From: a virus
DNA: 64,000 nt
IMG/VR virus record: IMGVR_UViG_3300046616_000188
Direction: 5' to 3' (one strand)
The notes beneath the pieces are model-generated. The model saw only the letters and a list, made by a program, of their open reading frames with translations, had not been told where the DNA came from and did not search any database. The translations under genes and the position numbers were made by a program. Position 1 is the first letter of the stretch. Each line of letters starts with the position of its first letter. Below, one piece after another: positions 36,768 to 55,433 of this stretch.

Positions 36768-36974
36768 ATGGAAATTCAATTCAATTACGTGATCGGTAAG
36801 TTTTGGAACACAGATTCTGATCAAATTGGATGCTACACCTATGGCAACGAAGTTAAATATGGGACAATGGAAGACGCATTGGGCTTCCTAGACTATGTCA
36901 AGAGCCAAAACCCCGACACAGCGTATCATATTTTCCGTATCGACGTAGATAAGGATTTGGCACATGGCCGCTAA
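36768..36974 (+). CDS. Hypothetical protein
   Basis: Packed ORF. Confidence 0.6.
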   Translation: MEIQFNYVIGKFWNTDSDQIGCYTYGNEVKYGTMEDALGFLDYVKSQNPDTAYHIFRIDVDKDLAHGR

Positions 36975-37797
36975 GTGGCTCATCGATTCATATATGTTTG
37001 ATAACAATCCGTTGTATCACACAATTCCTGAAAATTTAAAAAGTTTGGGAATTGACCATCACGTGACAAAATATGTCCCGTTCGCTACGGAGCAAGATTA
37101 TGGTCCATATCTAGACGGTGACAACGTCATCCTCTATGGCACCATTGGCTATATCAAGAAGTGCAAGAAGATTTTCACGCCGGGAGCTTATGGATTTACC
37201 TCGAACCGGCAGTGCAACGTCTATATGACGAAGATTCCTCATCATTGGTTCCTCAACTCAGATTATATCATGCTGACGTGGGGTGACCTAAAAGCGAGAT
37301 GGCGCTCGATCTACGAACTGCTTGGAGCGTATGAAATTTTCATCAGGCCAATGTCTGGCGACAAGAGTTTCACAGGCCAAGCCATCTTCTACAGCGATTT
37401 CGAATATGAGGCCAATTCGACGCAGCAGCTGACATCTGTCACGGACGAGACCATCGTCATGATTGCTAGGTCGAAGAAGCATGACATTAAAGGCGAATTC
37501 CGATTCATCATAGGCGCTGGCGAAGTTATTGCTGGTTCTGAGTACAGATGGGATAACAAGCTCGACGTTCGCCGGGACTGGCCCCTTGAGTGTGAAGAAG
37601 TTGCTACAGCTGTTGCGAAACTTCCGTGGCAGCTAGACACTGTCTACAGCTGTGACGTTGCGTTGATGGCTGATGGTACGCCCAAGATAGTCGAATTGAA
37701 TTCCTTTGCCTCATGTGGCTGGTACGCCTGTGATCAGAAGAAAATTTTGACTAGGGTTACAGAAATTGCAGAGGCTGAGCATAATGAGAATTTATAA
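36964..37797 (+). CDS. ATP-grasp protein (R2K/DUF4343-like clade)
   Basis: IFIRP..GDKSFTG, GEFRFII, YSCDVA, IVELNSF..CGWY. Confidence 0.8.
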   Translation: MAAKWLIDSYMFDNNPLYHTIPENLKSLGIDHHVTKYVPFATEQDYGPYLDGDNVILYGTIGYIKKCKKIFTPGAYGFTSNRQCNVYMTKIPHHWFLNSDYIMLTWGDLKARWRSIYELLGAYEIFIRPMSGDKSFTGQAIFYSDFEYEANSTQQLTSVTDETIVMIARSKKHDIKGEFRFIIGAGEVIAGSEYRWDNKLDVRRDWPLECEEVATAVAKLPWQLDTVYSCDVALMADGTPKIVELNSFASCGWYACDQKKILTRVTEIAEAEHNENL

Positions 37798-39693: not shown

Positions 39694-40095
39694 ATGAATA
39701 TGATTAATAATAGTGAATGGCTTTGGCACGGCGCGCTTCATGCAAAAGCAGTGGTTGATGATGAAGGCACGATTCATCTCACCATGACAGGCGGCTACGA
39801 TCCGACTGATCCAGCTACCAGAATTGGCGATACTTGGACTTGGCTAGGCGATCAAGAATCATTCCTGCTAGATTGGGTTTTTGTCAAAGAACTTGAGCCA
39901 GATGTCGTTGAAGTGCCGCTTACAACGACGTGGCTCCTTGTCGTTAAATTCCCTGATGGCTCTATCGACTATCACGCCGATTTTTTTACGACTAGGGAAG
40001 AAGCGCTACAAGCGTTTCAGGCAGAACCTGACTGCGTCATCACTGGCGAGCCATGTGAACTGATTGACGTGATGGAAGTGTCTTATTATGGCTAA
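39694..40095 (+). CDS. Acidic hypothetical protein
   Basis: AAGGA RBS. Confidence 0.65.
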   Translation: MNMINNSEWLWHGALHAKAVVDDEGTIHLTMTGGYDPTDPATRIGDTWTWLGDQESFLLDWVFVKELEPDVVEVPLTTTWLLVVKFPDGSIDYHADFFTTREEALQAFQAEPDCVITGEPCELIDVMEVSYYG

Positions 40096-40732
40096 GACTT
40101 TGACCCGCGTAATTGGTGACGTGCATGGAAAATTCGACCAGTACAAAAAGATCATAAAGGGAGCGGAACGCTCTATTCAGGTCGGTGATCTAGGCGTTGG
40201 CTTCAAGAAATTGAATTATGAAGGAGAATTGGTATGGAGTACCAATCCTCCTCATAAGGAAATGGTGAAGCACTCGGCCAAATTTCTACGTGGAAATCAC
40301 GACAACCCTGACGTGTGCCGTAAACATTCTCAGTGGATCGCAGATGGCACGGTTGAAAACGACGTGATGTTTGTTGGCGGCGCGACTTCTATCGATAGAG
40401 CTTATAGGATCGAAGGCCAGTCGTGGTGGGCCGATGAAGAGTGCAGCCTGTCTCAGCTAAGACATTTCGTTGATCTTTATGCTGATATCAAACCGCGTGT
40501 CATGATCACTCATGAAGTGCCTGAATCTATCGCTGATGGAATATTGGCCGCAGTGAATCGAACGAAACTTGACGACCCGAGCCGCACCCGGCAAGCGCTT
40601 CAAGCCATGCTTGAGATTCATCGCCCCGAGATATGGATTGCGGGACATTGGCACGTCAACATCGATCAACAGTATCAAGGCATGCGCCTCATTGTTTTAA
40701 ACGAATTAGAATATGTAGATTTGGAGCTTTGA
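40088..40732 (+). CDS. Calcineurin-like metallophosphoesterase
   Basis: GDVHG, GDLG, RGNHD, THE, GHWH. Confidence 0.9.
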   Translation: MAKTLTRVIGDVHGKFDQYKKIIKGAERSIQVGDLGVGFKKLNYEGELVWSTNPPHKEMVKHSAKFLRGNHDNPDVCRKHSQWIADGTVENDVMFVGGATSIDRAYRIEGQSWWADEECSLSQLRHFVDLYADIKPRVMITHEVPESIADGILAAVNRTKLDDPSRTRQALQAMLEIHRPEIWIAGHWHVNIDQQYQGMRLIVLNELEYVDLEL

Positions 40733-41226: not shown

Positions 41227-41871
41227 GTGAATAAGTATAACGCAAGTTTTGTTTTCGGCACAGCCCTCACCGCTGTAACTTATGCCATCGGCGCTGTAGC
41301 GGGTTGGGTCGATCCTCACAACATCAATTGGATCGAATTCTTCGCGGTCTGGACCAGCTATGTCTGCACTCTGATGTGCGTGTATCAGACCCGTTGGAAT
41401 TATCCAATCGGCGCTGTTTCGACCATCCTTTCCGCCATTTTGTTCTACAAAATAGACTTACCAGCTATCGGACTTTTCAATATCCTCCTTTCGATTAATT
41501 TGATCTATGGCTGGTTCCGCTGGCGCGACGATGAAGACACCCGCCCCGTCACTAATCCATCACTGATTTGGTGGGTCGGATATGTAGGCATAGCCGCCGC
41601 AACATATGCCCTAATTACTGTGGTTAACAACTATTACGGCTATAGCCAGACTTGGATCGATATCACAACTGCGGTAGTCTATGCCGTGGCCCAAGCCATG
41701 CTAGACAATAAGCACCGCACCAATTGGGCCGTGTTTTTCGTGCTGAATGTTCTCTCGATCTATCTGTTCTTCAAGCAGGAACTGTATTTCGTGGCACTTC
41801 AATATCTGTATTTCCTCGGAAATACTGCCTATGGACATGTATCGTGGCGCATAGAACCTCGCACCGCTTAA
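41227..41871 (+). CDS. pnuC: Nicotinamide riboside transporter PnuC
   Basis: Multi-TM; NYPIG, YGW..W, W.D..T...YAVAQ.ML..K...NW, LF..Q.LY. Confidence 0.85.
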   Translation: MNKYNASFVFGTALTAVTYAIGAVAGWVDPHNINWIEFFAVWTSYVCTLMCVYQTRWNYPIGAVSTILSAILFYKIDLPAIGLFNILLSINLIYGWFRWRDDEDTRPVTNPSLIWWVGYVGIAAATYALITVVNNYYGYSQTWIDITTAVVYAVAQAMLDNKHRTNWAVFFVLNVLSIYLFFKQELYFVALQYLYFLGNTAYGHVSWRIEPRTA

Positions 41872-41883
41872 GGAGGAAGTGAT

Positions 41884-42093
41884 ATGAAATTTCTCATAGT
41901 TTACGTCTTGATCGCAGTCGGAACAGGCTCTGGATATGATAAAATTTACAGAGAACATTGCCCGAATGACAAGTTCACTTTCGGCCCTATCTTGGCCGGA
42001 ATGGTGTGGCCCATTTTCGCTGGCCTAGCTATTTCCAAAATCACTTCAGGTGAAACATCTGTGAGCGATGTTGAGTGCGGTAATAAATTTTAA
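41884..42093 (+). CDS. Small membrane protein
   Basis: Hydrophobic; G.VWPI motif. Confidence 0.6.
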   Translation: MKFLIVYVLIAVGTGSGYDKIYREHCPNDKFTFGPILAGMVWPIFAGLAISKITSGETSVSDVECGNKF

Positions 42094-42106
42094 ATAGGAG
42101 GAAATC

Positions 42107-42319
42107 ATGAGACTGAACAAGCGTTGGACCACGGCTCATCTCATGAATGAAGCCTTTAAGCACAAAGATAAATTTTATGAAATTAACGTTGGCGAAGAAA
42201 CCCTTAGCTGCGAACTTCATCCAAACACTTTGGATGTGACGTGGCGGCATAATTATAGATATGCCGATGAGGGTGAAATCGCTAACGTGCTGGCTCGTTG
42301 GGCCGTAGAGGGAGTTTGA
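42107..42319 (+). CDS. Hypothetical protein
   Basis: AGGAGG RBS. Confidence 0.6.
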   Translation: MRLNKRWTTAHLMNEAFKHKDKFYEINVGEETLSCELHPNTLDVTWRHNYRYADEGEIANVLARWAVEGV

Positions 42320-42320
42320 C

Positions 42321-42524
42321 TTGAACAGGGAAGAACTTAGAGCAAAGCTTGAAGAGGTTTTGTACGACAATGTCTCATCGTCCTATGACTGCGACCGGGT
42401 TTGGTCCGCATGGAGCTATGGCACGATGAGAAGCAGCGATTTCTACCCTCTTGAAGATAGGGTGCCAGAGATTGTTGAGGCAATGCTTATCGCCGTGTTA
42501 GGAGAAAGTAATGCCAAGCTATAA
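42321..42524 (+). CDS. Hypothetical protein
   Basis: CDRVWSAWSYGTM motif; packed. Confidence 0.6.
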   Translation: MNREELRAKLEEVLYDNVSSSYDCDRVWSAWSYGTMRSSDFYPLEDRVPEIVEAMLIAVLGESNAKL

Positions 42525-42777
42525 GCCTGTGGTACGGGGTAAAGCCTCGGTCTGTAATTGGGATTTGAGGGTCAGGTTCCGCACCAAGGAACAAGTCAAG
42601 AAAGCGATCCACTACCTCCTTGAAATGGATATAGATATTGACTTTTCCCTCACATTTGAGCTAGGTGACAGCGACACGGCTAATACTTACATAATTGATA
42701 TAGACAGCATGTCGTGGGCCAATAATCTAATTGATGTTGCCAAAATCTTTAAAAAAGTTGATTACCAATACGATTGA
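42511..42777 (+). CDS. Hypothetical protein
   Basis: AGGAG RBS. Confidence 0.6.
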   Translation: MPSYKPVVRGKASVCNWDLRVRFRTKEQVKKAIHYLLEMDIDIDFSLTFELGDSDTANTYIIDIDSMSWANNLIDVAKIFKKVDYQYD

Positions 42778-43805
42778 GAGAGGTTTACGTGGCAAAAACG
42801 ACTGGACTTATTGTAATTTCTGGACTTCTACCGACACGTGGCCATCAGTATCTCATTGATTTCGCATCTAATTTTGCTGATCAACTTCACGTCATTGTCT
42901 GCATCAGGTCATTTGAACCTGCCCTAACCCTTGACAGGGCAGAAGTCTTGGCACGGCATTACGCCAGAACCAATGTCACGGTGCATGAGCATTACGCCGA
43001 TGACGCGCCACAGAACGATGACGGCACGCCAGAATTTTGGGCCTATTGGTCGAATCTTGTAGACCGTGCCATCACTAAGCGGACCAAGATCGACTATCTG
43101 TTTGCCTCTGAGCATTACGGCGCTAGGTTTGCCGAAGCGCTTGGCGTCACGTTTATTCCAGTCGATATCGGCAGGGAAATTCTTAGTGTCACAGGGACAA
43201 GTGTGAGACGAAATCTGGCTGAGAATTTTAAATATATTCTGCCAGAATATCAGACTAAACTGTCCAAAACTATCTGCATGTTCGGCCAAGAGAGTGTGGG
43301 TAAAACCACTATGGCGAAATGGCTCGCCGCTAAGCTGGAAGGCCGTTGGATTCATGAATGGGCTAGGCCGTATCTCGAAGAAATCGGCGCTGAAGTCACT
43401 GACGAAAAAATGTTAAACATTGTTCGTGGCCAATTCGCAGCCATGGTTTCTGCTCCTAAATCCCTGTTTAATATAAGAGATACCGATCTCTTGTCCACAA
43501 TCGGTTACTACAAAATTTATGGCGGTAAGGTTCCTAAAGAACTTTATGAAAATTTTAACTTGACAAAGAGCGATCTTTATGTCATGTTAAATGACAATAT
43601 CCCATTCGAAGCTGATCCTTTGAGATATGGCGGCGATAAGAGGGAAAGTACGATGCAGTTCTGGATCGATCTACTCGATGAGTATGACTGCAAATATCAT
43701 GTCGTAGAAAATACAGACATTTTGAAACAGCGAAAAGAAGTTGTCGAAGCTGTTTATGATTTTTTCACCGATCTTCGTGAAATAGAAGAATTCGTTCGAG
43801 ATTAA
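42774..43805 (+). CDS. nadR: NadR-like NMN adenylyltransferase / ribosylnicotinamide kinase
   Basis: PTRGH (HxGH-like), FASEHYG, GQESVGKTT, EWARPY, DTDLLST, PFEADPLR. Confidence 0.85.
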   Translation: MREVYVAKTTGLIVISGLLPTRGHQYLIDFASNFADQLHVIVCIRSFEPALTLDRAEVLARHYARTNVTVHEHYADDAPQNDDGTPEFWAYWSNLVDRAITKRTKIDYLFASEHYGARFAEALGVTFIPVDIGREILSVTGTSVRRNLAENFKYILPEYQTKLSKTICMFGQESVGKTTMAKWLAAKLEGRWIHEWARPYLEEIGAEVTDEKMLNIVRGQFAAMVSAPKSLFNIRDTDLLSTIGYYKIYGGKVPKELYENFNLTKSDLYVMLNDNIPFEADPLRYGGDKRESTMQFWIDLLDEYDCKYHVVENTDILKQRKEVVEAVYDFFTDLREIEEFVRD

Positions 43806-43814
43806 GGGACTAGA

Positions 43815-44003
43815 ATGTCTAACTATGCACTTTTCTTCATGTGGCTGAAAATGTTCTTCACCGATTTGGTGTGGCTATTCGGCCTGTCTTACGGGCTGTA
43901 TTTTTTGGCCAGCATCTTCCATCCCGGAATTTTAATTTTTGTCGCGTCGGTTTTTATAGCGTCGGCGGCATACAGTTCCGTAACACGGTTCTATCAACAC
44001 TAA
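43815..44003 (+). CDS. Small membrane protein
   Basis: Two TM segments. Confidence 0.6.
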   Translation: MSNYALFFMWLKMFFTDLVWLFGLSYGLYFLASIFHPGILIFVASVFIASAAYSSVTRFYQH

Positions 44004-44012
44004 GGAACTAAA

Positions 44013-44429
44013 ATGACTATCAACTACAAATGGCTGACGTTTAATTGCGTTTCACTATTCGTCTTGGCCTTTCTGGTCAATTACTATGACGCAGCTACGT
44101 TCATTTGGACCAAGGATAAAACGCATATCACCCTAGTAATTCTGTCTCTCTATGCAGCTTGTTCAGCCTATCTAGGCTACAAGGGCGGCGAGCCGGAAGC
44201 CATGAAAAAGGTTAGGTTCCACCTGAATCGTTTCACTATGCTAGGACTTATGGGCACGATGGCTGGCCTAATCCTGATGTTCTTCGGCGCATCCGACTTG
44301 GACGCTTTCAGGCAGAATATTCTTTCTGAGGTTGGCCCGGTATTCCTCACTGGCTTGTTCGGCATTTCCGCGAGCTACATCCTCGATTATCAAATCGCGC
44401 TATGCTTTGGTAATTACGACGAAGCGTAA
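44013..44429 (+). CDS. MotA/TolQ/ExbB proton-channel family protein (minimal)
   Basis: 4 TM; LGLMGTMAGL and GPVFLTGLFG motifs. Confidence 0.75.
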   Translation: MTINYKWLTFNCVSLFVLAFLVNYYDAATFIWTKDKTHITLVILSLYAACSAYLGYKGGEPEAMKKVRFHLNRFTMLGLMGTMAGLILMFFGASDLDAFRQNILSEVGPVFLTGLFGISASYILDYQIALCFGNYDEA

Positions 44430-44449
44430 CTTTTGAAAGGAAGAGCCTA

Positions 44450-45037
44450 ATGAAAGGCCCTGTCAAAATCGCATACATTGACGTTCTATCATGCCTAGTA
44501 GTAGTGCTCTTAGTAGTGGTTATCTTCTCCACACCAAAAAAAGAAGAATCTAAAGGAAATATCATCGATCCGAGTCAGTACCTAATCGAAATGACTTGGA
44601 CCGACGATTCGCCTAATGATATTGATTTGTGGGTCGCCAATCCCAATAATCAAATTGCCTATTTCGGAACTAGAGAAATTGGCGGCATGACACTGGACAC
44701 AGACAATTTAGGCATCGGAAACACTTATATCACCGATAGCGCCGGTAACACCGTCGTTAATAAGACTAGAAGAGAAGTTGCAAGTATTAGAACGCCTATC
44801 GCTGGAACTTACACAGTTAATGTTTTGCTTTACGGAAATCGTAACAACAAGCCAGAAACTATTAGAGTAAGAGTTTTCAAACTTAATCCTTATAAAGATG
44901 TAATTGAAAAGGAAGTAATTTTGGAAACTCAGATGCAGGAAACCACGATAGTCCAATTCGATATTGACAAAGATGGTAAATTCCTGAGCAAGTCTGAAAG
45001 TGAACAAGTTTCTCTAATGGCAAAGTTAAAACCATGA
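44450..45037 (+). CDS. MotB/ExbD-like TM anchor fused to YfaP/DUF2135-like domain
   Basis: AYIDVL (intramembrane Asp); DIDLWV.NP...LD.D...GTYTVNV..Y. Confidence 0.7.
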   Translation: MKGPVKIAYIDVLSCLVVVLLVVVIFSTPKKEESKGNIIDPSQYLIEMTWTDDSPNDIDLWVANPNNQIAYFGTREIGGMTLDTDNLGIGNTYITDSAGNTVVNKTRREVASIRTPIAGTYTVNVLLYGNRNNKPETIRVRVFKLNPYKDVIEKEVILETQMQETTIVQFDIDKDGKFLSKSESEQVSLMAKLKP

Positions 45038-45510
45038 TCATTACCTTTATTATCGCTTTAGGTCTAGTTCTTCTCACGATCTTTGTAGGTTTCCGGTATA
45101 GTTGGAAAGCCTCACTAGCCGTTCTAATTCCTCTGCTTTATGTAGGGTATTGGACCTTATCTATTCAAGTTCCTAAATATTTTGGCTATGCCCTGCCCCT
45201 CAATTTTGCCGAATTAAACAATCAAGCAAGATTTATTAGCGGCTTTGAAGGAAAAGATGCAATTTACATCCTCCTGCTAGAGAAGGGTGACACTCAGCCT
45301 AGACTGATCAGCATCCCTAACACGGCGAAGAATAAACAAACTTTTTATGACCTTCAAAAACAGTCCAAGGCCGGTAAAAGTGCAGTGCTCCGCAAATCTA
45401 AAAAGACAGGCGCGACGGACAGAGAAGGTCAAGGTCCTGACTCAGAAAGCGATATTGAAGGCGTCGAGCTTAAAGACCAAGACATCATTCAGAAAGGCGC
45501 TGATCAGTGA
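45034..45510 (+). CDS. Membrane-anchored third component of the MotA/ExbB-type triad
   Basis: Two N-terminal TMs; IYILL...PRLISIP; ATGA overlap. Confidence 0.65.
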   Translation: MIITFIIALGLVLLTIFVGFRYSWKASLAVLIPLLYVGYWTLSIQVPKYFGYALPLNFAELNNQARFISGFEGKDAIYILLLEKGDTQPRLISIPNTAKNKQTFYDLQKQSKAGKSAVLRKSKKTGATDREGQGPDSESDIEGVELKDQDIIQKGADQ

Positions 45511-45728
45511 AACCACCTTATTTTGAAATTGAAAATTGTAAGTGCGAAGCCTATGTCCAAGAAATTGCAATTTGTTTTTTCTGGCGCAGATGGTACTGGA
45601 AGGCTAAGTTTTATTACGAAGGTGAATGCACTCCGTATGACATTTTCGATGGAACGGAAATGACTGAGGCAGAAGCCCTTGCCGCGATCCACGATAAATA
45701 TTCGGAGTTGTTTCCCGCAGATGACTAA
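45507..45728 (+). CDS. Hypothetical protein
   Basis: GTGA overlap. Confidence 0.6.
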   Translation: MKPPYFEIENCKCEAYVQEIAICFFWRRWYWKAKFYYEGECTPYDIFDGTEMTEAEALAAIHDKYSELFPADD

Positions 45729-49332: not shown

Positions 49333-49361
49333 TTGACTTTCTTGGTTTTTTGTGCCATATA
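49333..49361 (+). promoter_or_regulatory. Promoter of primase-helicase
   Basis: TTGACT-N17-CATATA. Confidence 0.55.
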
Positions 49362-49384
49362 ACAAGCATGTGAAAAAAGGCATA

Positions 49385-52300
49385 ATGATGAAGATTACTG
49401 AAGACGAGCTTGAAAGGCTTGTTGCTGGTTTATTTGGTGACGGTCTTACTCAAGGCAATATTGAATTCTTTAATGAAAAAGACGACGTTTTACAGACCCG
49501 CGATCTAGATGAAGTTATTGACTTCGATCCCACGCACATCAGCTTAGAAACGACAGATGGTGAGCTTGTAGGCTTTGGCCTTCCCGTAGATGAGGTTCCG
49601 GCCCACTATCCCGCGCCTTCGGCACAAGGCGGCGGCTTGAAGCTGTGGTTCTATGAAAGCCCGGTTGATTGCGACCTCCTGCCCCAATATGGAAATCCCA
49701 TTGTTGAAATTCCTTTGATTTCATATCAGATCAATGGGGATAATTTCTACGAGACGTTTGATTTTGACGAAGTGAGTGAAACATCAACTCTCGTGTCTAG
49801 AATCGACAGGACAAGGCCTGTAACCTTCGCCATGGCTCCGCAAGCCGCGATGAAAAAGGGCGGCTGGAAGAACGTCGAAGGTACGCTCGGTGACGTAATC
49901 GATATGCTTACGCTGCACCAAGAAGGCAAGAAGGATGGAGCTTGCTTTGTTCAGGGTGAATTAGCCGGTGCGGATCGTGCCGCTAAAGCCATGATCAAAA
50001 ATTATCTAATTGGCTTCGACCTAGATACTGGCGAAACTGCGGAAGAAATTGACGCGAGACTTGCCGAAACAGGACTGGCATATGTCAGATATACGACTCA
50101 TTCTCATATGAAAGATACGTCTGAAATAAAGCGTGATGCTTATTTTAGATGGAGTGAAAGAGACGCGTCTAAGAACGTAGATGTAAACCTCCTGAGAAAA
50201 TACTTGATCTCGGATCGTGGATTCATCCCTCGTGTCGTGGAAAAACTTGAAATTTTAGAAGATGCAAAAGTTTCTGAGGAAGGAACTATTACGCTTATCA
50301 GGCATCAACAAATGCCTAAGCATCGTATCATTTTCTTTCTCTCAGAACCTTTCGTGTTTCAGGGCCAAGCTAATCAGAACGTCGAGATTAAGGCGTGGAA
50401 AGAGCATTACCACGGCCTAGGCATTGAGCTAGGCTTCGTCTACGACCCTTCTTGTACCGATCCGGCCCGTTTGTTCTACCTCCCGCGCCACGCCAAGGAT
50501 GCGCCTTTTGAAACCCGTTTCGTAGACGGAGATTATGTTGATCTTCGAACCTACGCTCGTGCCGAAATCAAACGCAGAGATAAGGCTAAAGAAGGCAATC
50601 AATTTCAAGACGCGGGTAAATCTCTAGGTGCCACGAGTGAAGGCCTTTTCGTAAATGGTTACAATCTCAAGCGTTGGGTAGTGACCCGCGACTGTGAAAT
50701 TGTCGATCTCATCGAAGAGTTTTATCCAGATGCGATCAGAACGCCTCGTACCAATGGCCCCGGTTTCCATATCGAATGCCCATTCGAAGATGAGCATACC
50801 AAGGCTGGCGGCTTAGGCACTTATGCCATCAATGCATCTGACGGGGATAAAGGATTCCACGTTCATTGTACTCACAATTCTTGCCATGGTCGTAATAAAT
50901 TAGAATATGTCCAGAGAATGGTTGAACTGGAATGGTTCACCGTTGATGATATTCAGGACGAACGCTTCTGCCCAAGTCTTATCAAAGAAGATGAGGATGA
51001 AGATGAAGCCCCGGCTGAAAAGAAGTACGAAAAATTTGACATTAATGAATTGATTGACTCTTTGTCACAGAAAAGTGATAAGGATGATGTAATTGATGCT
51101 GTCAGAAAGATCGGTAAGACCGAAAATTTAGATGAAGATGATTTTGAAGCTTATGTCGCGAGAATAGCTCGAAAGACAAAGGTTCCGAAGAAAATTCTCA
51201 TGAAAAACGCTCCATCTAAATTTGAAGGAAGTGCGGAAGACAAAAATAAAAAACTTGACGAACTGGATAAAAGACTGCATAAATATAACGAAAGATACGC
51301 AATGGTGGATACTGGTTCAAAAGTAGTTATAATGGATTCTCATAAAAAAGATATGACATTTACAGGCCGTGACGACTGGAGAGCCTTGAAAGCCAATGAG
51401 AAGGTCTTGGTTCATGAAGGTAACGGCGAACCTAAGTTGGAACAAGTCTCCAAACTTTGGCTCGAATGGGAGCAGCGCCGCACCTACGAAGGCGTAACAT
51501 TTGACCCTCGCCCAACACCCGATCCGACAAAGTTTAATCTTTTCAATGGCTTCCATACCATTCCGAGAAAAGGCAATTGGGACAAACTTAAGCAGCACAT
51601 CTTCGAAGTCATGTGCCACAATAATGAAGAGCACTATTTGTGGATCATTACATGGCTGGCTCATATCGTGCAATTTCCTTGGGAAAAGAAGGGCTCAGCC
51701 ATTGTTGTTCGCGGCCTAAAAGGCGTCGGCAAGTCCATTGTTTTCACCATCTTCCAAGACATTATGGGCAAGTATGGTATGAGTTCGGCCAACGCATCTC
51801 ACATCACTGGCCAATTTAACTGGCACTTCAGAGACAAGCTTTTCATGATCGCTGAAGAAGGTTTGTTCGCCGGTAATTCCAGAGAAGATTCCATCCTAAA
51901 AGAACTGATCACCGGCTCATCACTGCTTATGGAACCTAAAGGCATTGATGCGTTCCAGATGGAAAACTACCTCAGAATCGTTATTATTTCTAACGAAGAA
52001 TGGGTCGTTAACGCTTCATCGGATGAGCGTCGTTACTTCGTAACGGAAGCCTCTTCCAAATATAAAGACAATATCGCTTATTTCAAGTCGATCATTGAGC
52101 AGATGGAAAGTGGCGGTAAAGAAGCGATGATGTACGATCTACTTCATTTCGAGCCTACGGCGGCTGAAGGTTGGGACATTCTGAGACGCCCTCCTAAGAC
52201 CGAAGCTTTGAGCCAGCAAGTCACTCAGTCAACTCCTGTGTGGGAAAAGTTCTTCATCAATCTCATTGAAAATATGGGCGTGGATGAAGCTGCGGGCGAC

Positions 52301-52582
52301 CTTGATAAGGTTGAACTGGATTACGGCGTAGAAAATTGGATCGATCCTAAAGTCTTGAGGCAGCATTATTATAACAGCCTGAAGACTTCTACTTCTAGAT
52401 ACAAGGCTGATCCCAAGACGTTCCAGAAACTGGCAGATACTTACTTGATGGCGAAATGGGTGAAAAGGAAGAGACAAGGCGGCGAGTTGTGGATGAAAGT
52501 ACCGCCGTTGGAAGATATTATAGACAACGTTAGAAATAAACTTAAAATTAAACTCGATATGATTAACATTACGGAAGAATAA
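49385..52582 (+). CDS. Primase-polymerase (AEP-like) fused to SF3/D5-like helicase
   Basis: DLD, YTTHSH, HRI, DPSCTDPARLFYLP; CPF..H...HC.H.SC Zn site; GLKGVGKS Walker A, FMIAEE Walker B. Confidence 0.85.
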   Translation: MMKITEDELERLVAGLFGDGLTQGNIEFFNEKDDVLQTRDLDEVIDFDPTHISLETTDGELVGFGLPVDEVPAHYPAPSAQGGGLKLWFYESPVDCDLLPQYGNPIVEIPLISYQINGDNFYETFDFDEVSETSTLVSRIDRTRPVTFAMAPQAAMKKGGWKNVEGTLGDVIDMLTLHQEGKKDGACFVQGELAGADRAAKAMIKNYLIGFDLDTGETAEEIDARLAETGLAYVRYTTHSHMKDTSEIKRDAYFRWSERDASKNVDVNLLRKYLISDRGFIPRVVEKLEILEDAKVSEEGTITLIRHQQMPKHRIIFFLSEPFVFQGQANQNVEIKAWKEHYHGLGIELGFVYDPSCTDPARLFYLPRHAKDAPFETRFVDGDYVDLRTYARAEIKRRDKAKEGNQFQDAGKSLGATSEGLFVNGYNLKRWVVTRDCEIVDLIEEFYPDAIRTPRTNGPGFHIECPFEDEHTKAGGLGTYAINASDGDKGFHVHCTHNSCHGRNKLEYVQRMVELEWFTVDDIQDERFCPSLIKEDEDEDEAPAEKKYEKFDINELIDSLSQKSDKDDVIDAVRKIGKTENLDEDDFEAYVARIARKTKVPKKILMKNAPSKFEGSAEDKNKKLDELDKRLHKYNERYAMVDTGSKVVIMDSHKKDMTFTGRDDWRALKANEKVLVHEGNGEPKLEQVSKLWLEWEQRRTYEGVTFDPRPTPDPTKFNLFNGFHTIPRKGNWDKLKQHIFEVMCHNNEEHYLWIITWLAHIVQFPWEKKGSAIVVRGLKGVGKSIVFTIFQDIMGKYGMSSANASHITGQFNWHFRDKLFMIAEEGLFAGNSREDSILKELITGSSLLMEPKGIDAFQMENYLRIVIISNEEWVVNASSDERRYFVTEASSKYKDNIAYFKSIIEQMESGGKEAMMYDLLHFEPTAAEGWDILRRPPKTEALSQQVTQSTPVWEKFFINLIENMGVDEAAGDLDKVELDYGVENWIDPKVLRQHYYNSLKTSTSRYKADPKTFQKLADTYLMAKWVKRKRQGGELWMKVPPLEDIIDNVRNKLKIKLDMINITEE

Positions 52583-52891: not shown

Positions 52892-52928
52892 ACACGTGTA
52901 AATGAAAGGGCAAGCGAAGGAGTTTCTA

Positions 52929-53993
52929 ATGCCGGATATTAAGTATGACTACGGCTGTTTTATTGGCCGATTTGCCCCTGTCCACGATGGCCATGTCAAA
53001 GTGATGATGGAGGCGTTAGAACAATGCGATTATCTTATCGTTGTTGTTGGTTCCGACAATTTGGCTCGGAACACTCGAACCCCCTTTACAGCCCCTGAAC
53101 GTCAGCAAATGATTCGTTTAGCCACGAATTATGATGATAGGATTCTGCTAACTAGTGTTGGTGATTATCCTTATAATGACAGTCTATGGCTCGCGGATGT
53201 TCAGGGCGCAGTTTATTCCACAATCACTGGTCATGAAGCTAACGCGAAATATACTGACAAGGGTTGGAAAGATTACAATCATTCCATTGCTCTTGCCGGA
53301 ATGTCGAAAGATGAGTCAAGTTTCTATTTGAAGCTTTTCCCGCAATTCGCATCTATCGCTGTCAGCCCCGCCGACTATGCCGGTGAAGTTCTGAGCGCAA
53401 CGGCGATTCGTGAGTTCCTGTTTAACGGAGATATTGCGAGTGCTGCTCATTTAAATCCTAGAGTCCAAGCCTTTATTCAAGGCAACATGACCGCAAATAT
53501 AACTGTTTGGGACGGACTACGTTCTGATTGGGCATATGAAAAGGGTTATGAGGCTCAATGGGGTCGTGGACCACATACCACGGTTGATTCTTGCGTAATT
53601 CAGGCTGGCCACGTGCTTCTGATCAAACGCGGAAACGAATACGGTAGAGATTTGTGGGCCATGCCGGGAGGTTTCGTGAATCGTGAAAGACTCGTTCACG
53701 CCGCAGTTAGAGAGTTGCGCGAAGAGACTAGGCTGAAAGTTCCTGAAAAGGTCCTGTTTGGCTCAGTGACAGCGACTAAGGTTTATGATAACCCTTACCG
53801 CAGCAACCGCAGCCACATCATTTCTCATTGCTTCAAATTTGAGTTAGAGAACGTTAAAGCTGGTTTGCCAGAAGTTAAAGGCTCTGACGACGCGAAGCAT
53901 GCGGAGTGGATTCCTATTTCAAAGATTAGCTCAATGAAAGGGCAATTCTTCGAAGATCATGAGCAAATTTTGCTTGATATAATACACGCATAA
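52929..53993 (+). CDS. nadM: Bifunctional NMN adenylyltransferase / Nudix hydrolase (NadM-Nudix)
   Basis: GRFAPVHDGH; PF...ER; SATAIRE; Nudix GGF......AA.RELREET. Confidence 0.92.
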   Translation: MPDIKYDYGCFIGRFAPVHDGHVKVMMEALEQCDYLIVVVGSDNLARNTRTPFTAPERQQMIRLATNYDDRILLTSVGDYPYNDSLWLADVQGAVYSTITGHEANAKYTDKGWKDYNHSIALAGMSKDESSFYLKLFPQFASIAVSPADYAGEVLSATAIREFLFNGDIASAAHLNPRVQAFIQGNMTANITVWDGLRSDWAYEKGYEAQWGRGPHTTVDSCVIQAGHVLLIKRGNEYGRDLWAMPGGFVNRERLVHAAVRELREETRLKVPEKVLFGSVTATKVYDNPYRSNRSHIISHCFKFELENVKAGLPEVKGSDDAKHAEWIPISKISSMKGQFFEDHEQILLDIIHA

Positions 53994-54011
53994 AGAGAAG
54001 GAGTTTCGAAT

Positions 54012-55433
54012 ATGCTACTTAGAAATATTATTACTTCCAGTGACGCTTACAAGTTCAGCCATCCCTTTGTTGTTCGAAATGACATTGATCGGGCCACGTC
54101 TTATATCGAGGCGAGAAAGACGGCTTACACCGACGAAATCGTTTTCTTTGGCCTACAGGCTTACATCAAGGAATATCTGGCGAAGCAGCTAACTATGGCT
54201 GACATTGACACGGCGGAACGTTATGCCAAGTCGGCTATGATTCCATTCGCTAGGGCTGTGTGGGAGCGTGTTGTCAATGAGTTTGACGGCTACGTTCCTG
54301 TGGCTATTGAAGCTCTTGCTGAAGGCACTGTGGTTCGTCCCGGCGTTGTCGTGGTCCAAGTCACTTCCTATAAGATGCCAGAAATTGTGGCAGATATTGA
54401 GACTTCTCTTTTACGTGGCATTTGGTATCCGTCTACCGTTGCAACACTTAGCCGTGCGATCAAGAAGAATATTGCTAATGCGTATAACGTAACGTCTGAT
54501 CTTGACATTACAGCGCCGATGACTTTGGCCTGTGCTCTCAATGATTTCGGCGCACGTGGTTGCAGCAGTGGTGAAACCGCTGCGCTAGGTGGTTTGGCCC
54601 ACGCAGTTAATTTCCTTGGTTCTGACACGATTGAAGCCATTGAAGCTGCGGTCACATATTACAATCACGATCTTGACACTGATGGTCCTGTCGTTATTTC
54701 TGTCCCAGCCACGGAACACAGCGTAACCACTATGAATGGTGAAGATGGCGAGTGCGACTTTGTCGGCAAAGTAATTGACACATTCACTGAGATGGGCTTC
54801 CCCATTGTCTCCATCGTCGCAGATAGTTATGATCTTGACCGTTTCGTCACTGAATATGTCGGTACGACGCATAAGGAAAAGATTGAGGCTCGCGACGGCT
54901 GGATCGTGGTTCGCCCCGATAGCGGTACGCCGCATTTTATTGTTCCTCATGTTCTGAAGCTTCTCGACGCCAAGTTTGGCAGCACGATAAATTCTAAGGG
55001 TTTTAAAGTTTTAAATCCAAAAGTTCGTGTTATTCAAGGCGATGGTGTAAACCTAGAGTCGATAAACAACATCCTTTCAGCCGTCAAGTGGTCTGGCTTC
55101 TCAGTCGAGAACGTCGTGTTCGGCATGGGAGGACAACTTTTACAGGCACCCATGAGAGATGATTTTAGTTGGGCCATGAAGACTAACGAAATCGTTGTTG
55201 ACGGTGAATATATCGATGTTCAGAAGAAGCCTAAGACTGACCTGAAGAAGTCGAGCAAGGGTGGCAGGCAAGCCGTGGTTTATAATGGCGAACACTTTGC
55301 CTCTGTCAAACTTCGTGACCTACTCAGCGCGAGCCACGGCACAAAGAACTATCTTGAATGGGTTTGGGACACAGGTAAATTCCTTAAACCAGAGATAACG
55401 TTCAAGGAAATTCGAGCCAACGCTTCGATCTAA
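54012..55433 (+). CDS. nadV: Nicotinamide phosphoribosyltransferase (NAMPT/NadV)
   Basis: DAYKFSH, FFGLQ, DFGARG, PATEHS, SIVADSYD, RPDSG, IQGDG, FGMGG.LLQ. Confidence 0.93.
   Translation: MLLRNIITSSDAYKFSHPFVVRNDIDRATSYIEARKTAYTDEIVFFGLQAYIKEYLAKQLTMADIDTAERYAKSAMIPFARAVWERVVNEFDGYVPVAIEALAEGTVVRPGVVVVQVTSYKMPEIVADIETSLLRGIWYPSTVATLSRAIKKNIANAYNVTSDLDITAPMTLACALNDFGARGCSSGETAALGGLAHAVNFLGSDTIEAIEAAVTYYNHDLDTDGPVVISVPATEHSVTTMNGEDGECDFVGKVIDTFTEMGFPIVSIVADSYDLDRFVTEYVGTTHKEKIEARDGWIVVRPDSGTPHFIVPHVLKLLDAKFGSTINSKGFKVLNPKVRVIQGDGVNLESINNILSAVKWSGFSVENVVFGMGGQLLQAPMRDDFSWAMKTNEIVVDGEYIDVQKKPKTDLKKSSKGGRQAVVYNGEHFASVKLRDLLSASHGTKNYLEWVWDTGKFLKPEITFKEIRANASI

Follow-up and report, generated by a model that had tools for sequence, protein, structure and literature searches.

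Genes at the locus

The stretch of DNA considered here (the window) is the 64,000-nucleotide viral sequence of IMG/VR record IMGVR_UViG_3300046616_000188; the sequencing runs which contain it are all of rhizosphere metagenome DNA, several of them being possible sources of the sequence, and no RNA run is listed. Between positions 44013 and 45510 it carries three consecutive genes, here called A, B and C, which encode membrane proteins related to the ion-driven motors of the MotA/ExbB/TolQ/ZorA superfamily. Gene A (44013-44429, + strand) encodes a four-helix channel subunit of the MotA/TolQ/ExbB/ZorA family (138 amino acids). Gene B (44450-45037, +) encodes a 195-amino-acid protein in which an N-terminal helix bearing an aspartate is joined to a beta-sandwich resembling YfaP (DUF2135). 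Gene C (45034-45510, +) encodes 158 amino acids, arranged as a two-helix hairpin, a small domain, a linker and a terminal peptide. An earlier interpretation of this DNA, made from its letters and open reading frames (the sequence-only reading), had placed a triad of genes at these positions and had described the third as encoding a coupled membrane protein; both points hold.

After the stop codon of A (TAA) comes a ribosome-binding site of the GGAAG type, 20 nucleotides ahead of the ATG start of B. The coupling of C is direct: its start and the stop of B share an ATGA overlap. The trio belongs to a long series of + strand genes, and promoter-like and terminator-like sites across 41-47 kb show no excess over shuffled sequence. 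Comparison of close relatives indicates purifying selection on A, B and C, with the proportion of nonsynonymous differences (pN) at 0.03-0.43 against 0.34-0.84 for synonymous differences (pS). Since pN is far below pS in all three, they look like functional coding genes. Two close relatives, the loci L010 (5573-5980) and L011 (5586-5996), have a near-identical C (pN 0.03) and a similar B (pN 0.11), whereas A is very different between them (pN 0.41); this looks like a recombinational swap of A alone.

Protein A

Protein A has four hydrophobic segments, at residues 8-26, 38-56, 73-92 and 106-127, and it matches the PADLOC model ZorA2 at 3e-6. When the profile of ten homologues (alignment A2) is compared with all PDB sequences, the matches are almost exclusively chains of the MotA/ExbB superfamily, with scores of 1.6e-4 for ZorA, 6.5e-3 for TolQ and 0.05-0.7 for MotA, PomA and ExbB. 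The NCBIfam ZorA models reach 10.7 bits on A, and their cut-offs are 100-700. Relatives of A are assigned to the family more directly: those in L004 and L008 come with precomputed Pfam MotA_ExbB matches, and bacterial homologues score 38.1 and 42.3 bits against the same model (cut-off 22.9). The Atlas neighbours of A are MotA_ExbB clusters, most of them viral.

The channel residues of the family are recognisable. An hhalign comparison of A with E. coli TolQ gives 80% probability and pairs the helices so that GLMGT lies with GLFGT and FLTGLFG with LIATAIG. T82 of A then falls on T145 of TolQ and T113 on T178, the equivalents of ExbB T148 and T181. G81, T82 and T113 are invariant in phage and bacterial homologues.

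What sets the phage proteins apart is their size. Phage A proteins have 135-187 amino acids and bacterial ones 179-281 (alignment A7); the phage forms are without the cytoplasmic insert of 40-100 residues between helices 2 and 3 and without the C-terminal tail of the bacterial forms. In the window protein the stretch between helices 2 and 3 is only about 15 residues long, and the sizeable cytoplasmic domain of the channel family is absent from it. The description of A as a minimal MotA/ExbB-type protein with four transmembrane segments holds: the four segments are present, the profile of its homologues matches chains of the superfamily (A alone is below the Pfam threshold), and there is almost no cytoplasmic part.

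Protein B

The N-terminal helix of B (approximately residues 9-26) reads KIAYIDV and is followed by a conserved KGN linker. Its aspartate is found without exception in 22 homologues, the most distant at 35% identity, and in 90% or more of a diverse set of 46. The sequence-only reading had singled out a conserved intramembrane aspartate as Asp10; its presence and conservation are borne out, and its position was off by one, as it is D11 when the methionine is counted. Ahead of the helix, the 22 sequences together contain 35 lysines or arginines and no aspartate or glutamate, and the N-terminus should therefore be cytoplasmic, like those of MotB and ExbD. B thus has what is expected of a partner subunit, namely an N-in helix with a conserved aspartate, encoded directly downstream of the channel gene. 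The coherent matches of the B profile in the PDB are solely to MotB-type and ZorB helices, and they are weak (E 0.08-0.35). Weak Pfam matches are also found among the 46 homologues, to MotB_plug in four and, through the helix, to ExbD in two.

The rest of B is a different kind of domain. In the AlphaFold2 model (predicted local distance difference test, pLDDT, 86.9), residues 43-185 form a beta-sandwich. An exhaustive structural search with VIA-align retrieves TerD (2qz7_B, Z 9.2; 2kxt, Z 9.1) over 132-135 residues, the next match having a Z of 5.9, and Foldseek agrees on the TerD fold. TerD gives no match at the sequence level, either in Pfam or in the profile comparison with the PDB. Similarity to YfaP is found at the profile level. 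The B family profile aligns with E. coli YfaP over 78 columns in hhalign (89%, E 2.2e-6), and BLASTP gives 2e-5. The two have the motifs W..DxDL..P.G, LD.D, EV and G.Y.V.V.Y in common, and one B homologue has been named YfaP/DUF2135 by the JGI (Joint Genome Institute). Pfam DUF2135 itself is matched by none of the 46 members (E 0.1). Five acidic residues of B are invariant: D57, D59, D83, D85 and E109.

Neither an OmpA-like domain nor an ExbD-type domain was found in B, which therefore lacks the periplasmic domains of the known partner families. The proposal that a YfaP-like head takes the place of an OmpA-like domain agrees with these results in both its parts: the YfaP likeness has profile-level support, though no Pfam DUF2135 match, and where an OmpA-like domain might have been there is a TerD fold.

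Protein C

Protein C begins with a membrane hairpin of two helices (residues 2-50), which is followed by an alpha/beta domain (65-121) and a disordered linker rich in glycine and lysine (123-139); it ends in a conserved peptide, near K154. An AlphaFold2 model (pLDDT 70.7) contains the same elements, with the linker disordered. In an alignment of 19 homologues (A6), G51 (in a G-Y motif) and G114 (in a K-x-G motif) are invariant, and K154 is nearly so. C belongs to no Pfam, NCBIfam or PHROG family, and the Atlas search with C returns viral hypothetical clusters only. Charged residues are unevenly distributed about the hairpin: the loop between the helices has 36 lysines or arginines and 5 aspartates or glutamates, and the flank after helix 2 has 43 and 70 respectively. 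By the positive-inside rule, the C-terminal part of approximately 110 residues is therefore predicted to be periplasmic.

It could be argued that these are not motor proteins at all, but co-evolving membrane proteins which retain a remnant of the MotA/ExbB helices and serve as a static scaffold or receptor. The motor signal is weak and extends over only some 55 residues in A and 35 in B, and the cytoplasmic domain of A has been lost. Against this, the residues involved in ion transfer (D11 of B; G81-T82 and T113 of A) are the most conserved ones, and the order of A followed by B, typical of all known members of the family, is universal here. A non-motor role is accordingly regarded as improbable.

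Distribution and phylogeny

A search with the window region at the DNA level finds no match among phage records; relatives were found by protein-level searches only. The B profile was searched against 1.84 billion cluster representatives (clusters at 50% identity) and matches 1,974 clusters at E <=1e-3 and 399 at <=1e-30; the best 150 listed are almost all of 180-230 amino acids. Among cultured phages, B is matched in Rhizobium phages only (24 records). The trio lies after endonuclease I in the 68-kb group of RHph_N3_13, and between gyrase and a late sigma factor in 154-kb Pootjesviridae, among them RHph_I46, P10VF and RL2RES. Further lineages with the trio, from soil and from the sea, are represented by phage contigs of metagenomes and IMG/VR.

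Bacteria have the module as well. Of 401 genomes sampled from one bacterial class, 55 are matched by the B profile, within their chromosomes; the class is that of a metagenome-assembled genome labelled Rhodovulum, presumably Alphaproteobacteria. At the bacterial loci a MotA_ExbB gene precedes B in 20 of 20 cases and a C homologue follows in 18 of 20. Of the 49 loci in all, every one has A and B side by side, and 47 have a C homologue after B; in the remaining two, an open reading frame for a C-like hairpin occupies the position of C. The survey of synteny which had been proposed as a check on the trio thus shows a nearly invariant three-gene order. The same survey removes the suggestion that the system is specific to phages, since the same A-B-C arrangement stands in bacterial chromosomes and the phage copies are the trimmed ones. 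Azospirillum megaplasmids also carry the module, at two places per record.

The tree of B has 40 rows, 10 duplicate loci having been omitted. A bacterial clade whose members come from large genomes stands far from the rest, and the other bacterial clade groups with phage sequences. The B of the window falls in an all-phage clade of 14 rows (support 100/99), together with those of the 68-kb, 154-kb and window-type phages. Such a mixed all-phage clade agrees with a capture long ago and later exchange between phages of unrelated types. One sequence labelled as phage, from L009, falls among the bacterial rows, and its contig looks bacterial. The phage trio is a reduced copy of a bacterial module and not a phage invention. 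A 4.85-Mb bacterial replicon, G306, has two copies of the module (L041 and L042), one from each bacterial clade.

In one of the bacterial clades, a gene for a predicted lipoprotein (LSGC lipobox, 257-264 amino acids, no Pfam family) lies directly after C. It is found at L038:7539-8333 and L040:7828-8616, and also in L039, L033, L034 and L049 (in the last read as 371 amino acids). The phages are without this gene. It suggests a possible outer-membrane partner, with which the module would span the envelope.

Genomic neighbourhood

The block of + strand genes which includes the trio also encodes a metallophosphatase, PnuC, NadR, a primase/helicase-type protein with a DUF5906 domain, NadM-Nudix, NAMPT and a DNA ligase. 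Judged by these genes, the trio appears to lie in an early block of replication and auxiliary functions and not in a structural or lysis block. The metallophosphatase (Metallophos, calcineurin-like phosphoesterase; 40088-40732, +) is 3.3 kb upstream of the trio, and pnuC (41227-41871) and nadR (42774-43805) are closer to it. The window thus has two routes of nicotinamide adenine dinucleotide (NAD) salvage, PnuC with NadR (41227-43805) and NadM-Nudix with NAMPT (52902-55433, +). An ATP-grasp protein of the R2K clade (36964-37797, +) and a DUF5906-domain protein of 1,076 amino acids (49352-52582, +) are encoded in the same block.

The genes which immediately flank the trio are not counted as part of it. 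Upstream, an open reading frame for a 62-amino-acid membrane protein with 2-3 hydrophobic segments (43815-44003, +) begins 9 nucleotides after nadR and ends 9 nucleotides before A. Other lineages have an HNH gene, endonuclease I or open reading frames of 86-139 amino acids in this place, and for this reason it was left out of the module. Downstream, an open reading frame for 73 amino acids, rich in cysteine and tryptophan (45507-45728, +), has a GTG start which overlaps the TGA of C. It was considered as a fourth gene of the module and rejected, being conserved (42-78% identity) only in the closest relatives, L010, L011 and L003, and not in other phages with the trio. A metallophosphatase-like gene (252-263 amino acids) which follows the trio in the 68-kb phages was likewise set aside; it is unrelated both to the bacterial lipoprotein and to the Metallophos gene of the window. 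One such downstream copy, at L004:5309-6097, has a weak precomputed Metallophos match, and the recurrence of phosphoesterases is probably a coincidence.

A scan of 79 neighbour proteins from 23 distinct phage-type loci, tallied by Pfam family, shows few recurrent neighbours. These are endonuclease I and a 5'-3' exonuclease (6, in one lineage), NadR-type AAA_28 (3), Metallophos (3), PhoH (2) and endonuclease VII (2). The three loci with NadR-type neighbours are the window and its closest relatives, L010 and L011. An endolysin-type gene stands directly before the trio in two loci: at L006:1988-2818 it encodes a lysozyme with PG_binding_1, and at L008:3972-4442 a Peptidase_M15_3 protein, after a LysM protein of 1,096 amino acids. 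With NadR-type genes at 3 of 23 loci and endolysin-type genes at 2 of 23, neither the link to pnuC-nadR nor a link to lysis is general.

Two alternative functions can be considered here. In the first, the trio energises uptake for NAD salvage, powering the import of nicotinamide riboside (or a related nutrient) together with PnuC and NadR. It draws on the presence of pnuC and nadR ahead of the trio on the same strand, on the NadR-type genes which also precede it in L010 and L011, and on phage 'ExbB' genes elsewhere, which have been interpreted, without tests, as auxiliary genes related to uptake (PMC11361711). The order of genes noted in the sequence-only reading is indeed that of the window; the role in uptake which it attached to that order is weakened, as the adjacency is limited to this lineage. 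In other phages the trio follows endonuclease I, is near gyrase and a late sigma factor, or lies beside DNA polymerase. No gene for a TonB-like protein or an outer-membrane receptor was seen nearby. PnuC, moreover, is a facilitator of the inner membrane and does not require such a motor. An uptake role is therefore considered very improbable.

In the second, the A-B channel is a controlled ion leak gated by the head of B and by C, which would lower or sense the membrane potential, either to time lysis in the manner of a pinholin or to shut down energy use by the host. MotAB-type channels without their plug are known to leak protons and to arrest growth, as in MotB plug mutants, and the trio directly follows endolysin-type genes in L006 and L008. 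However, these two loci are exceptions among the 23, and the neighbours of the trio in the window and at most other loci are genes of replication and metabolism. A strongly conserved head of 150 residues and a third protein also exceed what a leak would need, and the same trio is chromosomal in many bacteria. There is only a slim chance that this is the function.

A third alternative, in line with the ideas of superinfection exclusion and motor poisoning in the sequence-only reading, is that the trimmed module might serve in exclusion or sabotage. It would either guard the envelope of the infected cell against other phages and bacteriocins, or mix with or displace the host's own A-B-C module or its Ton, Tol or Zorya-type motors, as a decoy which binds the same periplasmic target without being able to signal inward. 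Several observations are in keeping with this: phage A is consistently without the cytoplasmic parts of bacterial A while the head of B and C are kept, the trio is among early-type genes, its horizontal spread among unrelated phages suggests a general benefit, and the top PDB and PADLOC matches of A are to ZorA, part of an anti-phage motor. On the other hand, the bacterial operons examined adjoin genes of a housekeeping type (CtaA, NYN, APH) and are without effector genes, B and C match no PADLOC system model, and some bacterial A proteins in the 49-locus survey are also short, at 173-187 amino acids. Exclusion or sabotage is thus unlikely, if less so than the other alternatives.

Proposed mechanism

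The reading preferred here is that the trio is a trimmed phage member of an unnamed module of the MotA/ExbB/TolQ/ZorA superfamily, used as a substitute for a host function. Taken as a whole, this reading is held at even strength, and its parts differ. By homology with the family, A and B, perhaps with C, likely form a real complex of the MotA/ExbB type. A would form a ring-shaped channel, expected to be a pentamer, around the N-terminal helices of B, in the 5:2 ring-and-axle arrangement of the family. Asp11 of B would take up and release a proton or another ion opposite T82 and T113 of A, and the flow of ions would move B relative to A.

If the complex is real, its output is probably periplasmic. 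Phage A has almost no cytoplasmic domain, and the head of B and the arm of C are predicted to be periplasmic; for these reasons work would be delivered to the periplasm or the outer membrane through the head and the arm, like that of ExbBD-TonB and TolQR-TolA. Neither a cytoplasmic rotor, as for MotAB, nor a cytoplasmic effector, as for Zorya, would receive it. The module would have been taken from bacteria and spread among unrelated phages. During infection the phage probably expresses an unregulated version of it, supplying or overriding the equivalent envelope function of the host; this step is drawn from the genomic context and the phylogeny. The role as a host-function substitute is a tentative possibility.

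Several results weigh against this reading. Protein A of the window is below threshold in Pfam MotA_ExbB (PF01618), at 14.6 bits (E 0.028) against a cut-off of 22.9. B has no detectable similarity to TolR in hhalign (2% probability), and in the absence of this and of an ExbD or OmpA domain, its link to MotB and ExbD is carried by a short helix, its aspartate and the gene order. The head of B probably binds calcium at sites of the TerD type, and the basis for this is the modelled fold and the conserved aspartates alone. A fold search with the whole model of C finds nothing at Z >=6; the top match has a Z of 5.9, and most of the matches listed are generic helical hairpins which cover just the hairpin of C. 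The topology of C is a prediction from the positive-inside rule only.

A more ambitious form of the proposal sees in the trio a minimal ion-driven machine, complete in itself, whose A would be the smallest known and without a cytoplasmic domain. Phages of Alphaproteobacteria would deploy it for mechanical work in the host periplasm, with a head that binds calcium and a flexible arm. Viruses would then encode envelope energisers of a new class, with an origin in a bacterial envelope system that is just as little studied. This form is somewhat doubtful; if it is true, the machine might exclude rival phages or hold the envelope together until lysis.

Ion-driven 5:2 motors are few (MotAB, ExbBD, TolQR, GldLM and ZorAB), and each one added to the list has brought to light another process of the cell envelope. 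The present module is widespread yet unnamed, and its B and C have no Pfam family. The phage form is its barest version, reduced to the membrane core, and this recommends it for structural and biophysical study. Experiments on the function of the module are already feasible, since cultured Rhizobium phages (RHph_N3_13, P10VF, RL2RES and others) carry it, as do Azospirillum replicons. It also raises the question of why viruses carry it.

Comparison with known systems

The literature search found no paper which describes the A-B-C module, in agreement with the earlier view that it is undescribed. The nearest report is at the level of annotation: phage genes for a 'TonB-system energizer ExbB' have been listed as auxiliary metabolic genes, with no partner genes or structure (PMC11361711). 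They resemble A in being carried by phages and in their annotation as channels of the ExbB type, and can be likened to it by annotation only. A survey of MotAB homologues records assorted DUF appendages on B subunits of the non-flagellar kind, and the head described here is not among them (PMC12505986).

The head of B resembles YfaP and TerD in having YfaP motifs, a TerD fold and aspartate clusters (D57, D59, D83 and D85). It differs from both in being fused to an aspartate-bearing motor helix and in having no DUF2135 or TerD match at the Pfam level. YfaP is secreted and belongs to the operon of the alpha-2-macroglobulin yfaS, and the proteins of the TerD family are soluble.

The Zorya system is close to the trio in its channel. 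ZorA is the best-scoring relative of A among solved structures and in PADLOC, and the helix of ZorB is among the weak matches of B. Unlike Zorya, the trio has an A without the long ZorA tail, a different head on B and no linked effector genes of the ZorC, ZorD or ZorE type, and its neighbours are small phage open reading frames. The stator complexes MotAB and PomAB share the four-helix layout of A, and the KIAYIDV helix of B resembles that of MotB. However, A has no torque-generating cytoplasmic loop, B has no OmpA-like domain for binding peptidoglycan, C is an additional protein, and no flagellar genes accompany the trio.

In its overall plan the trio is like ExbB-ExbD-TonB and TolQ-TolR-TolA. 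Each is a three-gene set in which A has a GxxGT helix and a threonine-containing helix, B has a single helix with an aspartate, and C is a third membrane-anchored protein with a flexible arm; here too the output is predicted to be periplasmic. The differences are that A, with its four helices, is almost devoid of a cytoplasmic domain, and that B has a sandwich of the TerD fold in place of the ExbD/TolR domain. C also differs from TonB and TolA in having a two-helix hairpin, a glycine/lysine linker and a short terminal peptide instead of their single anchor helix, Pro- or Ala/Lys-rich spacer and globular C-terminal domain, and the trio is not linked to genes for TonB-dependent receptors or for Pal and TolB. 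The sequence-only reading had the anatomy right, as a minimal A, an aspartate-bearing B with a YfaP-like head and a coupled membrane protein C are all seen in the present analysis.

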